This document shows, piece after piece, positions 19,889 through 50,729 of a stretch of DNA of 64,000 nucleotides; the first letter of the stretch is position 1; every line of letters begins with the position of its first letter. The notes under the pieces were generated by a model. That model ran no database searches. It had not been told where the DNA came from and saw only the letters and a program-made list of their open reading frames with translations. Location: the NCBI GenBank assembly GCA_963842525.1, contig CAWJGT010000006.1, positions 96,001 through 160,000 of the forward strand, in the 5' to 3' direction. The position numbers and the translations under genes were made by a program. This DNA comes from an uncultured Holophagales bacterium. Its GTDB lineage: Bacteria > Acidobacteriota > Thermoanaerobaculia > Multivoradales > UBA5704.

Positions 19889-20494
19889 ATGCCGGATACG
19901 GACTCGATTTCAGCACGAACCGGCCCTTCGGGCTCTCTGCCCGATGCGGCGTTGCTGCGCCTCGTCAGCGAGGGCCGGACGGAGGCGCTGGCCGCGCTGT
20001 ACGACCGCCACGCGCCCACCCTCCTCGCCCTCGCCCGGCGCATCCTGGGCGACACCGGCGAGGCCGGCGACGTCGTGCAGGAGGTCTTCCTCCACGCCTG
20101 GAACCGCGCCGCCCGGTACGATGCGACACGCTCGTCGGTCTCGACCTGGCTGGTGCTGATCGCCCGCAGCCGCGCCATCGACCGCCTCCGTCATCGCGGC
20201 GTGGTGGAGCGGACCCACGAGGCGGCGCACCACGACCAGCCGGCCGGGCATGCATCCCCCGACGGGGCCGAAGCCGTATTCCTCCGAGAGCGGCGGGAGC
20301 GGGTGCGGCGCGAGCTGGACAATCTGCCGCCCGAACAGAGGCAGGTCCTGGAGATGGCCTTCTACGAGGGCCTCACCCAGACCGAGATCGCCGCCCGGGC
20401 CGACCTGCCCCTGGGCACGGTGAAGACGCGGACCCTGTTGGCGATGAAAAAGCTGCGGAACAGTTTGCGTTCCGAGGTCAGGCAACTGCTGTGA
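19889..20494 (+). CDS. ECF RNA polymerase sigma factor (SigK-like)
   Basis: DVVQEVFLHAW, IARSRAIDRLR, region 4 LPPEQR..GLTQTEIA..LPLGTVKTR. Confidence 0.93.
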   Translation: MPDTDSISARTGPSGSLPDAALLRLVSEGRTEALAALYDRHAPTLLALARRILGDTGEAGDVVQEVFLHAWNRAARYDATRSSVSTWLVLIARSRAIDRLRHRGVVERTHEAAHHDQPAGHASPDGAEAVFLRERRERVRRELDNLPPEQRQVLEMAFYEGLTQTEIAARADLPLGTVKTRTLLAMKKLRNSLRSEVRQLL

Positions 20495-21471
20495 GTCAGG
20501 ACACGCAACCGGAAGACCGGACCATCCTCGCCGCGATCGAGGCCCTCGAACGAGGCGGTGACGCCCTCGAGCCGGGGGCGGACGCCGACGAGACCGCCGA
20601 GACGCTGGCGCGCCTCTATGCCGAGGTGCTCGGCCTGATCGCCTATGAGCTCGATCCCGTGGCTCCGCCGCCCGAGGTCAAGCAGCGCCTGATGGCGGCG
20701 ATCGCTGGCGAGGCGTCGCCCCAGGCGCCCCAGGCCCAGACCGAGCAGGCAGTGCCCCGGCCCGCGCCGGTCCCGACTCCCGCCCGGGAAGCCGCCGCCG
20801 TCCCGCCGCCCGCCCCATCCGTCCGCCCCTCGCAGGAGGTACCGGCTGCGTCTCCGGCCCCACCGACCTCGCGCGTGCCGCTTCGGCCGCCGGCGGTCTC
20901 GCGTCCTCCCAGGCGCTGGCCGGTGCTGTTGGCCGCATCCCTGGCCCTCATCTTCGCCGGGTCGTCCGCTTGGCTCTACGATCAGTGGATCACAGAGCAG
21001 ACGAAGACTACGCAGCTCGGGCAGTTGCTCGAAGAGGAGCGCCGCCGGGGCCTCCAAGGAAACGAGCCGGTCGAAGATCTGCGTGCCCAGCTCGCCAGCC
21101 TGCGCGAGAAGCTCAACATGGTCACCACCCCCGCGGTCGAGGTCAGTCCCCTGCGCCCGGAGGGGCGGCTCCAGCCCCAGGCGCGCGGCCTCCTTTTCGT
21201 CGCCGCCGACCACAAGCACTGGTATCTCAATGTCGAGGGCCTCCAGCCTGCGGACGCGGACAAGGTCTACCAGCTCTGGTGGATGGCGCCCGAGGGACCC
21301 GTGAGCGGCGGCACCTTCATCGCCCGTCCCGGCGAGCGGATCGAGCTGAGCTCCGAGACCATGCCTGCCGGCACCACCGCCGCCGTCGTCACCCTCGAAA
21401 ACGCCGGCGGCGCCCCCGCGCCCACCGGTCCTGCGGTTCTGCGCTCGACAGGGATCCGGCAGCTCTCGTAA
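20491..21471 (+). CDS. Anti-sigma factor with RskA-like C-terminal domain
   Basis: PVAPPPEVKQRLM, a TM segment, VYQLWW and AVVTLENAGGAPAPTGP; translationally coupled to the ECF sigma gene. Confidence 0.85.
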   Translation: MSQDTQPEDRTILAAIEALERGGDALEPGADADETAETLARLYAEVLGLIAYELDPVAPPPEVKQRLMAAIAGEASPQAPQAQTEQAVPRPAPVPTPAREAAAVPPPAPSVRPSQEVPAASPAPPTSRVPLRPPAVSRPPRRWPVLLAASLALIFAGSSAWLYDQWITEQTKTTQLGQLLEEERRRGLQGNEPVEDLRAQLASLREKLNMVTTPAVEVSPLRPEGRLQPQARGLLFVAADHKHWYLNVEGLQPADADKVYQLWWMAPEGPVSGGTFIARPGERIELSSETMPAGTTAAVVTLENAGGAPAPTGPAVLRSTGIRQLS

Positions 21472-23732: not shown

Positions 23733-23786
23733 ATTTTCCTCCCTGGGGAGGATTTGTCCTCCCGGCACACCGAGAAGGAGGTGCTC

Positions 23787-24323
23787 ATGCAGGTTCCCCT
23801 GGAGATTTCGACCAAGCTGATCGAGCTGTCCCCCGACCTTGAAGCCGACCTGCGGCGGCGTGCGGCCAAGCTGGAGCGCTTCTACGACCGGCTGACGAGC
23901 TGCCGGATCGCCGTCGAACGCGAGAGCTTGCACCACCAGGACGGCGGCCCGTTCCGGGTCCGCATCGATATCACGGTCCCCGGCACCGAGCTGGTCGCCA
24001 AGAAGCAGTCGGAAGACCTGAACGTAGCGATCCGCGACGCCTTCCAGGCCGCCGAGCGCCAGGTCGAAGAGTTTTCCCAGCGCCGGCGCGGCGAGGTCAA
24101 GACCCCGGTGCTCCCGCCGGAGGGCAACGTCGTCAGGATCTTCTCCGAGGACGGGTTCGGCTTCATCACCGCCGAGGACGGCCGCGAGGTCTACTTCCAC
24201 CGCAACGCCGTGCTCGACGACTTCGAGGCTCTGGAGGTCGGCTCGCGCGTCCGGTTCGCGGAGGAGCAGGGGATCGAGGGGCCTCAAGCGAGCACGGTCA
24301 GCCTCGTCGGAAAGGGGGACTGA
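23787..24323 (+). CDS. HPF/RaiA ribosome-associated protein fused to a cold-shock domain
   Basis: KLERFYDRLTSCRIAVE..VPGTELV..AIRDAF; CSD GFGFITAEDGREVYFHRNAV; RBS AAGGAGG. Confidence 0.9.
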   Translation: MQVPLEISTKLIELSPDLEADLRRRAAKLERFYDRLTSCRIAVERESLHHQDGGPFRVRIDITVPGTELVAKKQSEDLNVAIRDAFQAAERQVEEFSQRRRGEVKTPVLPPEGNVVRIFSEDGFGFITAEDGREVYFHRNAVLDDFEALEVGSRVRFAEEQGIEGPQASTVSLVGKGD

Positions 24324-24568
24324 GCCCGACCGCAGGCTCGACAGACCGTTTCTGAGGCGGAGCCTTCCTGAGGTCCCGGACCGGCTTGGAGGCCGGCCGG
24401 GCTTTTCGTTTTTCCGAGGAGATTTGGGATCAGCCGTGTAAAAAAGAATCAGGGAGGAGATGGGCCGTGGCGTGCTCGGAGCGCCTCCTGGATGTAACGG
24501 CCCACCTTCTCCCTCTGCACCCACCCTCTCTCCCGCCTGGAAAAGAAAGCAAATTTCTTGCCAGTTCT

Positions 24569-25909
24569 TCAGCAGCCGGCGCCGCAGCGCCGGAGGACGG
24601 TCGAGACCTCCTCGACAAGCCCGAGCGTGAGCTGTTCCATCTCGGCCGCCTTCTGGAAGACGATGAGGGCCGCGAGCGCCTCCTGCGGGACCTCGCAGGA
24701 CCGGAAGATGGGCAGGATCTCTCCGGCGAGCCGCTTCACGTCGGCGGTGCGGCCCGTCCGGGCGTAGAGCGCCGCGAGATCGAGCGACGCCAGGGCGACG
24801 TCGAAGGCGATGTGGTCCGTGGTGAAAGCCTCTTTGACATACAGGAAGATCTCCTCGGCTTCGGCGGTCTGCCCGAGCGCGGCGGCGATCCGCCCCTCGA
24901 GCCAGCGCAGGCGGAGCAGGTCGTGCGGCGTGCCGGCCTGTTCCAGACGGCGCCACGCCTCCGGGATGAGTGCGGCGGCTTCGTGCACCTCGCCGCTGTC
25001 GAAGAGGCAGCTCAGGAGGTTGAAGTGGCTGGCGACCACGGCCCGTGGTTCTTCGCGGCCGTCGAGCAGGTCGAGGCCCAGGCGATAGCAATCTGCGCCC
25101 GCGTGGAGATCGCCCTTGTACTGCAGCGCCAGGCCCTTGGCCACCACGGCCAGTCCCTGCAGGTGAAGCTCTCCGACCTCCCGAAGGAGGGCGATCGCCT
25201 CGTCGAAGAGCTGGACCGATTCGTCGAAGCGGCGCTGGCCGCGGCGCAGGGACCCCTTGAGCTCCAGGATCAGGGCCTCGTCCAGCGGGTCGAGCCAACT
25301 GTTGGCGAAGTACATCCCGGCCCTGCGGAAGGCCTGTTCGGCCTGGCGGAAGTCCGCGAGGACGCGCAGGCAGTTGCCGAGCCACGCCCAGGCCCTCGTC
25401 TGAATCGCCTCGACCGCGCCCGGGCCGTAGAGGTCCGGATCGAGGTCCTCGGCGATCTCCAGGGCCAGGCGCAGCTCCTCTTCCGCCCTGCGGGGCTCCA
25501 CCAGCACCGTCCACCGGGCCTCGTCGACGAGGAGCTCGCACAGGCCCCGGGTCCGGTAGCGGCGGTCGCCGGCGATCCGGTGGCGGACCTCTGCGAATCC
25601 CTCGCCCCTCAGCTCGTGCCAGAGCTCTTGCGCCGTGCCCCGTTCGCGCTGGATCGACGCCCTCCGCTCGGCCGCCGCCGGGCACATCTCCGCGAGAGCC
25701 CCCTGGAGGAGGCCCCGGTACCCACTCTCGGCCTCGGCCATGGCTCGAAAGCTCACCGGACCCTCCCGGGACGAGAGGAGCCGGAGCAGCCGCTCCTCGC
25801 AGGGGCGGCAGGTGACCAGATGACGCTGGAGAGCCCAGCTCCCTTCCTGCGGGAGGCGGTCGTTCAGGAACTTCTCGAGCGTTGCGCTGTCAGGGTGCCA
25901 GTCGCTCAT
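24569..25909 (-). CDS. TPR-repeat protein with N-terminal zf-HC2-like (HxxxCxxC) motif
   Basis: WHPDSATLEKFL...HLVTCRPC followed by TPR-like helices (AWAWLGNCLRV, LKGSLRRGQRRFDES, WLEGRIAAALG). Confidence 0.75.
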   Translation of the reverse strand: MSDWHPDSATLEKFLNDRLPQEGSWALQRHLVTCRPCEERLLRLLSSREGPVSFRAMAEAESGYRGLLQGALAEMCPAAAERRASIQRERGTAQELWHELRGEGFAEVRHRIAGDRRYRTRGLCELLVDEARWTVLVEPRRAEEELRLALEIAEDLDPDLYGPGAVEAIQTRAWAWLGNCLRVLADFRQAEQAFRRAGMYFANSWLDPLDEALILELKGSLRRGQRRFDESVQLFDEAIALLREVGELHLQGLAVVAKGLALQYKGDLHAGADCYRLGLDLLDGREEPRAVVASHFNLLSCLFDSGEVHEAAALIPEAWRRLEQAGTPHDLLRLRWLEGRIAAALGQTAEAEEIFLYVKEAFTTDHIAFDVALASLDLAALYARTGRTADVKRLAGEILPIFRSCEVPQEALAALIVFQKAAEMEQLTLGLVEEVSTVLRRCGAGC

Positions 25910-25982
25910 GAAAAAGCCCTCCTGCGGGCAGACATCTTCACTTCTTCACTTCAGCGTAAATCTTACCTACGGATGCCGTCCC

Positions 25983-26282
25983 TCACGGCGTTCCGGGTGG
26001 TCTGGGCGGCCTCCCGAACGGATCGATCCCGACCCCTTCCCAGCCGCCGGGACTCGTGGGGTCGTGATGGACGGGCCCGGCGTTGTCCATCTGGAAGACA
26101 CCCAGCAGATCGGCGATCGGCTGGGCGAGCTTGCGGATGACGAGCTCGAGCTGCTGGATGCCGATCGAATCCCCTTCCCGGAGGCTCCGTCCTGCCGGAG
26201 CGGCCTCCGCCGCGGGCAGGAAGAGCAGTCCGAGAGCGAGCACCAGACCGGCCACGAGACGAACCAGAGTGCTGCGTGACAT
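25983..26282 (-). CDS. Small secreted peptide or precursor (99 aa) with GxGIDPxG motif
   Basis: RBS AAGGGAG; signal peptide MSRSTLVRLVAGLVLALGLLFLPAAEA; C-terminal WEGVGIDPFGRP. Confidence 0.7.
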   Translation of the reverse strand: MSRSTLVRLVAGLVLALGLLFLPAAEAAPAGRSLREGDSIGIQQLELVIRKLAQPIADLLGVFQMDNAGPVHHDPTSPGGWEGVGIDPFGRPPRPPGTP

Positions 26283-26549
26283 CGGTTCTCCCTTCGTGAC
26301 GGCGCAATCAGCAACCACTACGGCCGCTGCGGCCGTCACTTGCAGTTGCCCCGGTCCCTGGGAGCCGGCTCTCGAACGTAGACCAGAGATACTGACTCGA
26401 CTATACATCTATCCAGCCGGTAAGAGAAGCGGGTGCTTGCCCCGCGCGCTTGCCCCGGTTCCCGGTCTTGCGCTCGTGGAACAGAGATGATGAGATAGTT
26501 GGTCACAAATATGGCCCGCAGGAGGGGCTGCCCCGAAAGGAGGCGTACG

Positions 26550-27413
26550 GTGAGTGAAATCGAGAGTCGCGGCTACGTTCACCCCGATGTCCTGGTCTCC
26601 ACGGATTGGGTGGCGCAGCATCTGGACGATCCCGGCGTGCGGATCGTGGAGTCGAACGAGGACCCGCTCCTCTATTCGACCGGGCACATTCCCGGTGCGG
26701 TGGAGGTGGATTGGACCCGGGATCTGAACGATCCGGTGCGGCGCGACTACCTGGGCCGGGACGGGTTCGAGCGCCTGATGCGGCGGATCGGGGTGACGCC
26801 GGATACCACCATCGTCCTCTACGGCGACCGCAACAACTGGTGGGCCACCTACGCCTACTGGGTGTTCCAGCTCTTCGGGCACGGCAAGGCCAAGATCATG
26901 GACGGCGGCCGGATCAAGTGGGTCAAGGAGGAGCGGCCCCTGACGCGTGACGTGCCGGGCTACGCCGAGACCGGCTACCAGACCGCCGAGCGGGACGACG
27001 AGCGGATCCGGGCCTTCCGCGACCAGGTGCTGCACCACGTGGAGGGACAGGGGCGGATGATCGACGTGCGCAGCCCCCAGGAGTATTCGGGCGAACGGCT
27101 GCACATGCCGGAGTATCCGAACGAGGGCGCCCTGCGCGGCGGCCACATCCCCGGCGCGGCCAACGTCCCCTGGGCGCGGGCGATCAACGCCGAGGACGGC
27201 ACCTTCAAGACCGCCGACGAGCTGCGCTCGATCTACGAGGGAGAGGCGAAGCTCCAGAAGGACGACGACGTCATCGTCTACTGCCGCATCGGCGAGCGGA
27301 GCAGCCACACCTGGTTCGTGCTCACCCACCTGCTGGGCTACCGCCAAGTCCGCAACTATGATGGGAGCTGGACGGAGTGGGGCAACCTGGTGGGAGTCCC
27401 CATCGAACGCTGA
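26550..27413 (+). CDS. Thiosulfate/3-mercaptopyruvate sulfurtransferase (tandem rhodanese)
   Basis: GHIPGA twice, active site [20 protein letters not shown]. Confidence 0.95.
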
Positions 27414-50281: not shown

Positions 50282-50599
50282 TCACTGCGCAGGGTCGGTG
50301 CCCTCCGGATTTGTCATCAGGCTATTCGGCGGTAGATCCGGGTTGGGGAGGCAGAGGAGGGGAGCACCGTTCGGATCGATACCGCAGCCCGCCGCCTGCC
50401 AGGAGTGGTCGATCTTGGGCTCGCCGGTGGAGGCCAGCGACCAGGCGCGGACCAGCCAGTCGATCACGAGATCGAGGGGCCCTACCGAGCTCGAAGACCT
50501 CCAGGAGGCGTGGCCGGAGGCGAAGGACAGAGAGGGGAGCAGCAGCAGGGAGAGCGCCAGGATCGCGGCCATGGCGCAACGACGACGTCGGTGATTCAT
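50282..50599 (-). CDS. Small secreted peptide or precursor (105 aa) with GxGIDPxG motif
   Basis: RBS GGAAGGAG; signal peptide MNHRRRRCAMAAILALSLLLLPSLSFA; WQAAGCGIDPNG. Confidence 0.65.
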   Translation of the reverse strand: MNHRRRRCAMAAILALSLLLLPSLSFASGHASWRSSSSVGPLDLVIDWLVRAWSLASTGEPKIDHSWQAAGCGIDPNGAPLLCLPNPDLPPNSLMTNPEGTDPAQ

Positions 50600-50729
50600 G
50601 GATTTTTGTCTCCTTCCAGCAATGGAATTCATGACACGAAAAACCGGCGCGCGGCCGGAGATACGCCTCTTTCTCATCCAATAAGTGCCGCGAGGACCGA
50701 AAAGAGAGCCGATCGATATACTCCCGCGG

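Follow-up and report, generated by a model that had tools for sequence, protein, structure and literature searches.

A propeptide gene paired with a zinc-finger tetratricopeptide repeat protein gene: a candidate peptide-receptor cassette family in Thermoanaerobaculia

On the minus strand of the window analysed here, a 64,000-nucleotide stretch of an uncultured Holophagales bacterium (assembly GCA_963842525.1, contig CAWJGT010000006.1, positions 96,001 to 160,000 of the forward strand), lies a short gene, here called pepA, for a 99-residue putative exported propeptide, and 73 bp past its stop codon begins a gene of the same orientation for a soluble tetratricopeptide repeat (TPR) protein with a zinc-finger head (Table 1). 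The results are best explained by a large family of peptide-receptor cassettes, specific to the lineage (Thermoanaerobaculia, Acidobacteriota), of which the two genes would be one unit. An earlier note on this DNA, made without database searches, had described a 99-residue signal-peptide open reading frame (ORF) 73 bp upstream of a co-oriented soluble TPR gene, and this description held for the coordinates, the translation and the lack of a hydrophobic segment in the TPR protein.

The pepA product consists of an n-region bearing Arg and Lys, a hydrophobic segment (LVRLVAGLVLALGLLFLPA), the junction AEA|AP, a segment reading QQLELVIRKLAQPIADLL and the tail WEGVGIDPFGRPPRPPGTP. Hydrophobicity (Kyte-Doolittle, 19-residue window) reaches its maximum of 2.33 at residues 6–24, and the putative signal peptide would be cleaved after AEA. 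Among the signs of translation, strong Shine-Dalgarno sequences precede the starts of both pepA and the TPR gene, and the GAAGGAG of the pepA site is kept in the alignment of orthologues. The GC content of pepA by codon position is 0.77/0.52/0.79, the third-position value (GC3) being the highest among four overlapping frames (the others 0.73, 0.54 and 0.75) and lower than the 0.90 of neighbouring genes. Searches of pepA against Pfam and NCBIfam found no family, and a phmmer search of all six-frame ORFs of the genome returned only pepA itself at E<0.1. A search of the ESM Atlas gave only acidobacterial clusters of 'hypothetical protein' at 0.88–0.89, which is under the level that counts.

The TPR protein has no hydrophobic segment, whether transmembrane or signal (maximum 1.22 by the same measure), and carries the sequence RHLVTCRPC near its N-terminus. 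The earlier note had recognized in this region a zinc-binding anti-sigma (ZAS) type of domain, a claim that holds: the putative zinc ligands H5, H30, C34 and C37 do not vary among the window protein and 44 relatives (45 sequences), and a profile built from 39 N-termini picks up, among solved anti-sigma factors, DdvA (E 8.6e-4) and ChrR (E 0.012, residues 5–51), as well as RslA (PDB 3hug_B, E 0.026) and RsiW. The zf-HC2 family (PF13490) matches 29 of the 39 N-termini at E<=0.01, scores 32.5 bits in the closest paralogue of the window protein and appears in the precomputed annotation of many orthologues. For the TPR body, Pfam returned generic TPR families only, TPR_MalT falling under its cut-off, and the sole match of the protein by phmmer among PDB sequences was Pins (E 0.0013).

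The genome from which the window comes (9.95 Mb in 34 contigs, Thermoanaerobaculia; labelled G000) contains many copies of both elements. With the window TPR protein as query, phmmer finds 98 ORFs at E<=1e-10, which merge into 84 loci. Candidate peptides were collected from six-frame ORFs, blind to their gene neighbours, as those with the motif [ILVM]DP.G, a hydrophobic stretch before it and no more than 60 residues after the last motif; this yielded 72 ORFs, from which eight obvious false matches (e.g., a permease and a thioredoxin-like protein) were removed by eye. The remaining 64 share a common build, in which a signal peptide is followed by a spacer of 10–25 residues, a Trp/Leu-rich helix (LWxxLxxxW) and one to four tandem units of approximately x-D/E-x-G-x-x-[I/L/M]-D-P-[N/D/H]-G. 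Many end exactly at DPNG, DPDG or DPHG, a subset has Cys flanking the motif on both sides (GCxIDPxGxC), and variants outside the motif scan also exist (...IDDNG, ...GADPNG and three copies of IGIQIDGNG). The second peptide with the same motif (pepB), from which the earlier note had suggested a paralogous family, exists 24 kb away in the window and is one of these 64. No family was found by Pfam or NCBIfam for six multi-repeat paralogous peptides either, and the searches with these and pepA gave only a weak EF-hand match (E 0.06); a calcium-binding reading of GxGxD/DPNG, RTX-like or EF-hand-like, was set aside, as there are only one to four repeats, their spacing is 13–16 residues and no family model applies.

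Peptide genes and TPR genes occur together. Within 500 bp of a TPR-paralogue ORF lie 53 of the 64 peptides (53 of 72 with the eight removed ORFs counted in), whereas 64 intervals placed at random put 1.3 there on average and at most 8 in 1000 trials; from the TPR side, 57 of the 84 loci have a peptide within 700 bp. The recurrent neighbours of the 64 peptide genes are TPR genes, antisense ORFs of TPR genes and small helix-turn-helix (HTH) proteins, and no enzyme family recurs within 4 kb of them.

The pairing is also conserved between genomes. Of 31 relatives, 28 have the TPR family; it is present in each of the 18 genomes that belong to the same family, which gave between 22 and at least 55 matches. 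When 151 genomes were sampled evenly across the phylum, matches at E<=1e-25 were confined to G000 and two genomes of the same order; at this threshold none was found in the eight listed genomes from other orders of the class or in other classes, with 11 candidates scored per genome. Among 80 loci taken from named metagenome-assembled genomes (MAGs), 78 had upstream sequence, and 51 of these have a peptide upstream on the same strand. In the orthologous loci (at least 47% identity), an upstream same-strand ORF with a signal peptide is kept in 40 of 43. The earlier note had set the absence of enrichment near TPR homologues as a ground for abandoning its proposal; the enrichment is present both within the genome and among these orthologous loci. 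Across 41 aligned orthologous peptides only M1, G83, P88 and G90 are invariant, the last three within a core EGxGx[D/C]PxG, and the pattern is therefore one of a pro-region free to vary and a short C-terminal core that is fixed.

The TPR loci of G000 differ in the N-terminal domain, or head, that precedes the repeats. Classification with jackhmmer gave 28 loci with a zf-HC2-like head, of which 20 have a peptide within 700 bp, always on the same strand (15 without Cys and 5 with Cys); 15 loci with an XRE-family HTH head, of which 14 have a peptide at this distance, always on the opposite strand and always of the Cys type (GCxIDPxGxC); and 41 loci with an unclassified or truncated head, 23 of them with a peptide, where strand and peptide type are mixed. 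HTH_3 scored above its Pfam cut-off in both HTH-type paralogues tested. In the zf-type and HTH-type loci, head, peptide type and gene orientation go together. Public homologues are annotated as 'zf-HC2 domain-containing protein', 'tetratricopeptide repeat protein' or 'XRE-family HTH regulator', and those with named sources come from MAGs of Thermoanaerobaculia or Acidobacteriota. Because 15 paralogues carry an XRE HTH in place of the zinc finger, the parallel with the RRNPPA peptide receptors of Bacillota drawn by the earlier note is firmer than could be seen from the window.

In an AlphaFold2 (AF2) model the window TPR protein is all-helical (pLDDT 86.3, pTM 0.76), with a short helical head, a disordered linker (residues 48–72) and a TPR superhelix. 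Peptide receptors head the bacterial structural matches of the model: RapI stands at Z 21.7 (rmsd 3.6 over 303 residues), NprR at Z 19.6 and a phage Rap at Z 18.7; PlcR (Z 14.8) and AimR (Z 14.4) come lower, and Foldseek agrees with the list. An HTH-type paralogue (pLDDT 88.7) has a similar list of matches (APPBP2 Z 22.2, LGN Z 21.7, NprR Z 19.2 and PlcR Z 16.2). Such matches show a common fold and a common kind of ligand, not membership of a family.

The multimer prediction proposed in the earlier note, of the TPR protein with the peptide tail, supports binding. TPR residues 100–446 and peptide residues 58–99, supplied with separate, unpaired alignments, gave an interface score (ipSAE) of 0.61, the best of three controls reaching 0.00; in a benchmark that holds only roughly here, since custom alignments were fed to the complex model, 0.61 is attained by 58 of the 80 solved complexes and by 2 of the 110 mismatched pairs. 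Three runs share at least 40% of contacts. The confident interface is formed by peptide residues 82–93 (EGVGIDPFGRPP), that is, by the conserved core within a 42-residue disordered tail, and the predicted contacts in the groove include N179, R182, S220, R223, L253 (Arg in most relatives), R289, N297, D330 and R333. Several of these are near-invariant among 57 full-length paralogues of the genome (N179 in 51/57, R182 in 55/57, S220 in 49/57, N297 in 43/56 and R333 in 47/56), and positions 257, 260, 263, 264, 293 and 300 are among the most variable.

Covariation between the partners points to the same interface. Peptide position 87 is Asp in 15 and Cys in 25 of 40 orthologous pairs, and exactly one of the 446 TPR columns, position 220, separates these D-type and C-type pairs perfectly, being Ser in all 15 D-type pairs and Pro (13), Ala (7), Leu (4) or Ile (1) in the C-type pairs. 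Residue 220 is one of four TPR residues modelled against peptide residue 87, and because the alignments given to the model were unpaired, the complex model and the covariation are independent of each other. The same Asp-to-Cys replacement weakens the alternative, raised in the earlier note, of a peptide that cleaves itself at Asp-Pro, since D-P is C-P in 25 of the 40 orthologues.

The known system that the pair most recalls is Rap-Phr, in which a propeptide with a Sec signal and a C-terminal active part is encoded beside a cytoplasmic TPR receptor; lacking a DNA-binding domain, this receptor works through protein contact with another regulator. The same design is read for the window pair, and RapI is the best bacterial structural match of its TPR protein. 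Unlike Rap, the window protein has a zinc anti-sigma domain at its N-terminus rather than a three-helix bundle, and it shows no relationship to Rap at the sequence level. Its host is a diderm acidobacterium, the zf-type peptide gene stands upstream of the receptor gene, and G000 holds 84 TPR loci, 57 of them paired, whereas Bacillus genomes contain only a handful of rap-phr pairs. Tandemly repeated pheromone units, such as those of the multi-repeat peptides, also occur in RRNPPA propeptides according to the portion of PMC11343458 that was available.

The HTH-type paralogues resemble instead Rgg-SHP, PlcR-PapR and NprR-NprX, consisting of an XRE HTH followed by TPRs and having the peptide gene on the opposite strand (14 of 15 loci). 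In rgg/shp pairs, too, the peptide gene lies on the strand opposite the receptor gene. Against this group, the window protein itself lacks an HTH, the peptides combine Sec signals with DPxG repeats flanked by Cys, no Pfam family specific to RRNPPA was matched, and generic eukaryotic TPRs (APPBP2, LGN) match the HTH-type structure at least as well as these receptors do.

With the ZAS anti-sigma factors ChrR, RsrA, RslA and DdvA, the window protein shares HxxxCxxC and an upstream His, which align with ChrR residues 5–51, where the zinc ligands are H6, H31, C35 and C38; one paralogue group (L072, below) also has an extracytoplasmic function (ECF) sigma gene directly upstream. The sensors of those factors are a cupin, a redox switch or a transmembrane segment with a periplasmic domain, whereas here the sensor would be a 340-residue cytoplasmic TPR body predicted to bind an encoded peptide, and most TPR copies have no adjacent sigma gene. 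ECF signalling has been linked to TPR modules, and to soluble anti-sigma factors, before; in the available part of PMC7826278, a reclassification of ECF sigma factors, TPRs are mentioned only for ECF42, where they extend the sigma factor as a fusion, or for a FecR-like case, and that text, the full group lists in its supplements aside, describes no peptide partner and no acidobacterial zf-HC2-TPR group. In what was accessible of PMC10075063 and PMC9765709, systems that pair an exported peptide with a cytoplasmic TPR receptor are regarded as characteristic of Bacillota and the mobile elements they carry. A literature search joining RRNPP with Acidobacteria found nothing, and the part of PMC13083261, on Thermoanaerobaculia, that could be consulted describes no such peptide-TPR system. 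As read here, the peptide-TPR system works like RRNPPA systems and has a new output; by sequence it is not a member of them.

The clearest tie of the TPR family to ECF sigma factors is a cluster found in the L072 paralogue group (DASYKS010000027.1, 872..5586) and in G000 (contig C34, 43598–47867). In L072 an ECF sigma gene ends 3 nt before the start of the zf-TPR gene, a variant peptide gene lies in the same cluster, and three of three small genes score above the Sigma70_r2 cut-off; on contig C34 the order is sigma, zf-TPR, peptide, sigma, TPR. The cluster comprises a sigma-54-activator-like gene, three ECF-type sigma genes, the zf-TPR gene and a peptide with three IGIQIDGNG repeats.

On this evidence we lean, with reservations, towards reading pepA and the TPR gene as a Phr/Rap-like peptide-receptor system with an anti-sigma output. 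The propeptide would be exported by Sec with removal of its signal peptide, and its variable pro-region would then be trimmed to a short peptide ending in the conserved core (...EGVGIDPFG in pepA); paralogues would release one to four tandem copies of x[I/L/M]DP[N/D/H]G. The peptide would re-enter the cytoplasm and sit in the concave groove of the TPR superhelix, where near-invariant polar residues (N179, R182, S220, N297 and R333) may hold it and hypervariable neighbours may set specificity. Binding would alter the action of the N-terminal domain: in the window protein the zinc-binding anti-sigma domain would hold or release, in whichever direction the switch runs, an ECF sigma factor presumably encoded elsewhere, and in the 15 HTH-type paralogues the XRE helix-turn-helix would bind DNA directly. 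A wider proposal, in which some 50–60 orthogonal exported-peptide/TPR pairs per genome would provide multi-channel peptide communication in diderm Thermoanaerobaculia, having evolved independently of the RRNPPA systems of Firmicutes, with one class acting through release or capture of an ECF sigma factor by the zinc anti-sigma domain, an output that peptide pheromone receptors are not known to have, is put forward tentatively, and we consider it rather more doubtful than the reading of the single pair.

A number of results tell against the favoured reading. Its weak point is the route out and back, for the host is diderm and Sec reaches the periplasm only, and within 4 kb of the cassettes no recurrent gene for an outer-membrane exporter, importer or protease was found. 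In the window no sigma gene stands beside the TPR gene, the ECF sigma gene 4.4 kb away was considered as a partner and dropped because an RskA-type anti-sigma gene of its own lies directly downstream, and the zf-HC2 score of the window protein (16.7 bits) is below the 22.2-bit cut-off. In the whole genome there are 47 Sigma70_r2 matches, and just 3 of the 98 TPR ORFs have one within 1.5 kb. As phmmer detects no paralogue of pepA, the peptide 'family' rests on motif and architecture, and no partner was detected for 27 of the 84 TPR loci or for 11 of the 64 peptides. At 36 further MAG loci (33 from other paralogue groups and three unresolved orthologues) a peptide on either strand was found in 11, by a heuristic that misses variants such as IDGNG and IDDNG. 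None of the RNA sequencing runs listed contains the stretch, and the DNA runs that do have shares of 0.20 or less.

The structural and covariation evidence has adverse points too. The highest matches of the window model are LGN (Z 24.7) and Pins (Z 23.8), peptide-binding TPR proteins of eukaryotes, above Rap; the peptide's own fold is uncertain in the complex model (pLDDT 42–45), and the controls of that model were folded proteins, not disordered peptides. The covariation at position 220 counts as one evolutionary event only, the D-type pairs being a single clade (SH-aLRT 84 in a quick IQ-TREE run), and three G000 paralogues without S220 are still paired with D-containing peptides. As a set, the contact positions are no more conserved than the rest of the protein (entropy 2.31 vs 2.33, p=0.55).

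Among other explanations, it is unlikely, at a level that still deserves weighing, that the TPR protein answers some other cue and that the peptide is a secreted product under its control, bacteriocin-like, adhesive or metal-binding, which the TPR protein does not bind. Regulators are commonly encoded beside their targets, some orthologous peptides are rich in His and Cys (e.g., ...HHHQPGQDPNADEGPSVCPHGGGHHHP), which fits metal binding, ZAS domains are zinc or redox sensors, the C-x-[IL]-D-P-x-G-x-C repeats could form disulfide loops in the periplasm, and 11 of the 64 peptides are orphans. However, the conserved core occupies the groove in the complex model, where controls score 0.00, the sole TPR column that tracks the D/C switch of the peptide is a predicted contact, the strict coupling of head, peptide type and orientation suggests that pairs diversify as units, and fifty or more distinct secreted products, each with a private regulator, are harder to explain.

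Lower again we would place a switch coupled to secretion without re-import, in which the TPR protein would bind the core of the pre-peptide in the cytoplasm, export would free or occupy it, and the output would report the status of Sec or the envelope. Precedents are the type III secretion chaperone IpgC with MxiE, and FlgM with sigma-28. Such a switch avoids moving a peptide of about 1 kDa out and back across a diderm envelope, draws on the predicted interface and the gene pairing described above, and would be given a 1:1 synthesis of its parts by the co-transcription of zf-type peptide and TPR genes. Against it, Sec substrates usually stay only briefly in the cytoplasm, the one to four core repeats and the many ends at DPNG or DPDG look like signals released in multiple copies, and the HTH-type pairs, being on opposite strands, are not stoichiometrically coupled.

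Very improbable is a precursor of a ribosomally synthesized and post-translationally modified peptide (RiPP), with the small ORF as an enzyme-modified leader-core precursor and the TPR protein as its regulator or recognition factor: the variable N-terminal part, the conserved, sometimes repeated, Cys-containing C-terminal core and the richness in RiPP clusters reported for Thermoanaerobaculia (in the accessible text of PMC13083261) would suit it, but no enzyme family recurs near the 64 peptide genes, a Sec signal peptide stands in place of a RiPP leader, and the window neighbours are HPF, rhodanese and glycogen-debranching enzyme genes. Both this and the secreted-product explanation are less supported than the peptide-receptor reading because they leave the predicted specific interface unexplained and no enzymes recur near the cassettes.

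Further features accompany the pair. The amphipathic segment of pepA, counterpart of the paralogues' Trp/Leu-rich helix, is weakly conserved among orthologues. Directly before the pepA Shine-Dalgarno sequence lies a nested hairpin that is conserved in 33 orthologous leaders (consensus GGCAGGC..CGGCCGTGGTGGCCG..TGACCTGCCG) and could control translation or mRNA stability. Of its cells 85.1% are paired, as against 30–53% with the partner slid, and compensatory changes occur in 8 of 11 pairs; the slid control is biased, since the two nested helices were drawn by eye from the same sequences used to score them, and RNAalifold found just one 3-bp helix in the leader. Rfam gave nothing near any gathering score over 24300..26600, a scan for sigma-70 promoters gave no sites, and the only terminator-like sites are those of the convergent HPF gene.

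The C-type orthologous peptides, in which the Asp of the core is replaced by Cys (L035, L058, L062 and others), are strikingly His-rich (e.g., ...GDEHHGEGGHGDPPPHHDPPPEGSGLCPHGEH), which hints at metal binding in that clade. pepB has a signal peptide, a helix reading LDLVIDWLVRAW, the motif and then a 35-residue Pro-rich tail. Its gene is flanked by ORFs that, judged by eye, resemble fabI and mannose-1-phosphate guanylyltransferase; no TPR gene adjoins it, the nearest TPR paralogue being 24.3 kb away. Identical or near-identical copies of cassettes stand at contig ends of G000 (C9:3995-4405 = C18:2597-3007; C8:907-1215 = C10:32941-33249; C1:2-1363), which suggests that recent duplicates break the assembly, and the cassette copy number is therefore a lower bound.

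Of the 33 small stand-alone XRE-like HTH ORFs in G000, which form a family, 18 have a TPR locus within 3 kb, and most of these 18 are convergent and just downstream of a zf-type or head-less TPR gene; these proteins may be a separate DNA-binding output partner. Of three SBP_bac_5 (OppA/DppA-type) genes in the genome, for which no link to the cassettes was found, two (C9:403765-404823 and C1:375359-376348) lie approximately 2–3.5 kb from a TPR locus with no permease genes seen between, a proximity that may be due to chance. The neighbours of the pair in the window are unrelated housekeeping genes, encoding an HPF-cold-shock-domain protein, a rhodanese and a glycogen-debranching enzyme. The first of these (23754..24323, plus strand) is a 189-residue protein combining Ribosomal_S30AE (E 1.2e-15) with a cold-shock domain (CSD, E 8.1e-12); as a C-terminal partner of HPF this domain is unusual. 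The ECF sigma gene and its RskA-type neighbour are an ordinary pair, probably unrelated to the TPR gene.

Table 1. Features of the pepA-TPR locus, other features of the window and examples of small HTH ORFs (positions in the window unless a contig of G000 is named)
Feature	Position	Strand	Description or basis
TPR gene	24569..25909	-	446-aa soluble protein; zf-HC2 (anti-sigma domain) head and TPR body
Putative ZAS-type anti-sigma domain	25769..25909	-	aa 1-47 (H5, H30, C34, C37)
TPR superhelix	24572..25597	-	aa 105-446; predicted peptide groove (N179, R182, S220, N297, R333, others)
TPR-gene Shine-Dalgarno	25917..25923	-	AGGAGGG; read from sequence, 7 nt before ATG
pepA	25983..26282	-	99-aa putative exported propeptide; ORF and translation, stop codon included
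pepA putative Sec-type signal peptide	26202..26282	-	aa 1-27 (MSRSTLVRLVAGLVLALGLLFLPAAEA); hydrophobic core and AxA pattern, read by eye
pepA amphipathic helix	26103..26156	-	aa 43-60 (QQLELVIRKLAQPIADLL); counterpart of paralogues' LWxxLxxxW helix
pepA conserved core	26013..26039	-	EGVGIDPFG, aa 82-90, predicted ligand; orthologue alignment and complex model
pepA Shine-Dalgarno	26288..26295	-	GAAGGGAG; read from sequence, 5 nt before ATG
pepA leader nested hairpin	26296..26339	-	GTGACGGC ... GCCGTCAC; directly before Shine-Dalgarno
pepB	50282..50632	-	orphan paralogous peptide, GCGIDPNG; likelier start MNHRRRR at 50599
ECF sigma gene	19889..20491	+	Sigma70_r2, Sigma70_r4, Sigma70_ECF
RskA-type anti-sigma gene	20500..21471	+	directly downstream of ECF sigma gene
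Small stand-alone HTH ORFs (G000)	C24:109119-109580; C4:251081-251578; C9:423545-424141		examples

If the peptide-receptor reading is true, peptide-TPR signalling logic would have been invented independently, and on a large scale, in a Gram-negative soil lineage, and peptide sensing would be joined there to ECF sigma control. Each genome would hold a natural library of dozens of matched peptide-receptor pairs, of use for following the evolution of specificity and as orthogonal parts for synthetic biology. A function would also be given to the 84 'tetratricopeptide repeat protein' loci of G000, to hundreds of similarly named metagenome proteins (411 and 293 matches) and to unannotated small ORFs of abundant uncultured soil bacteria.

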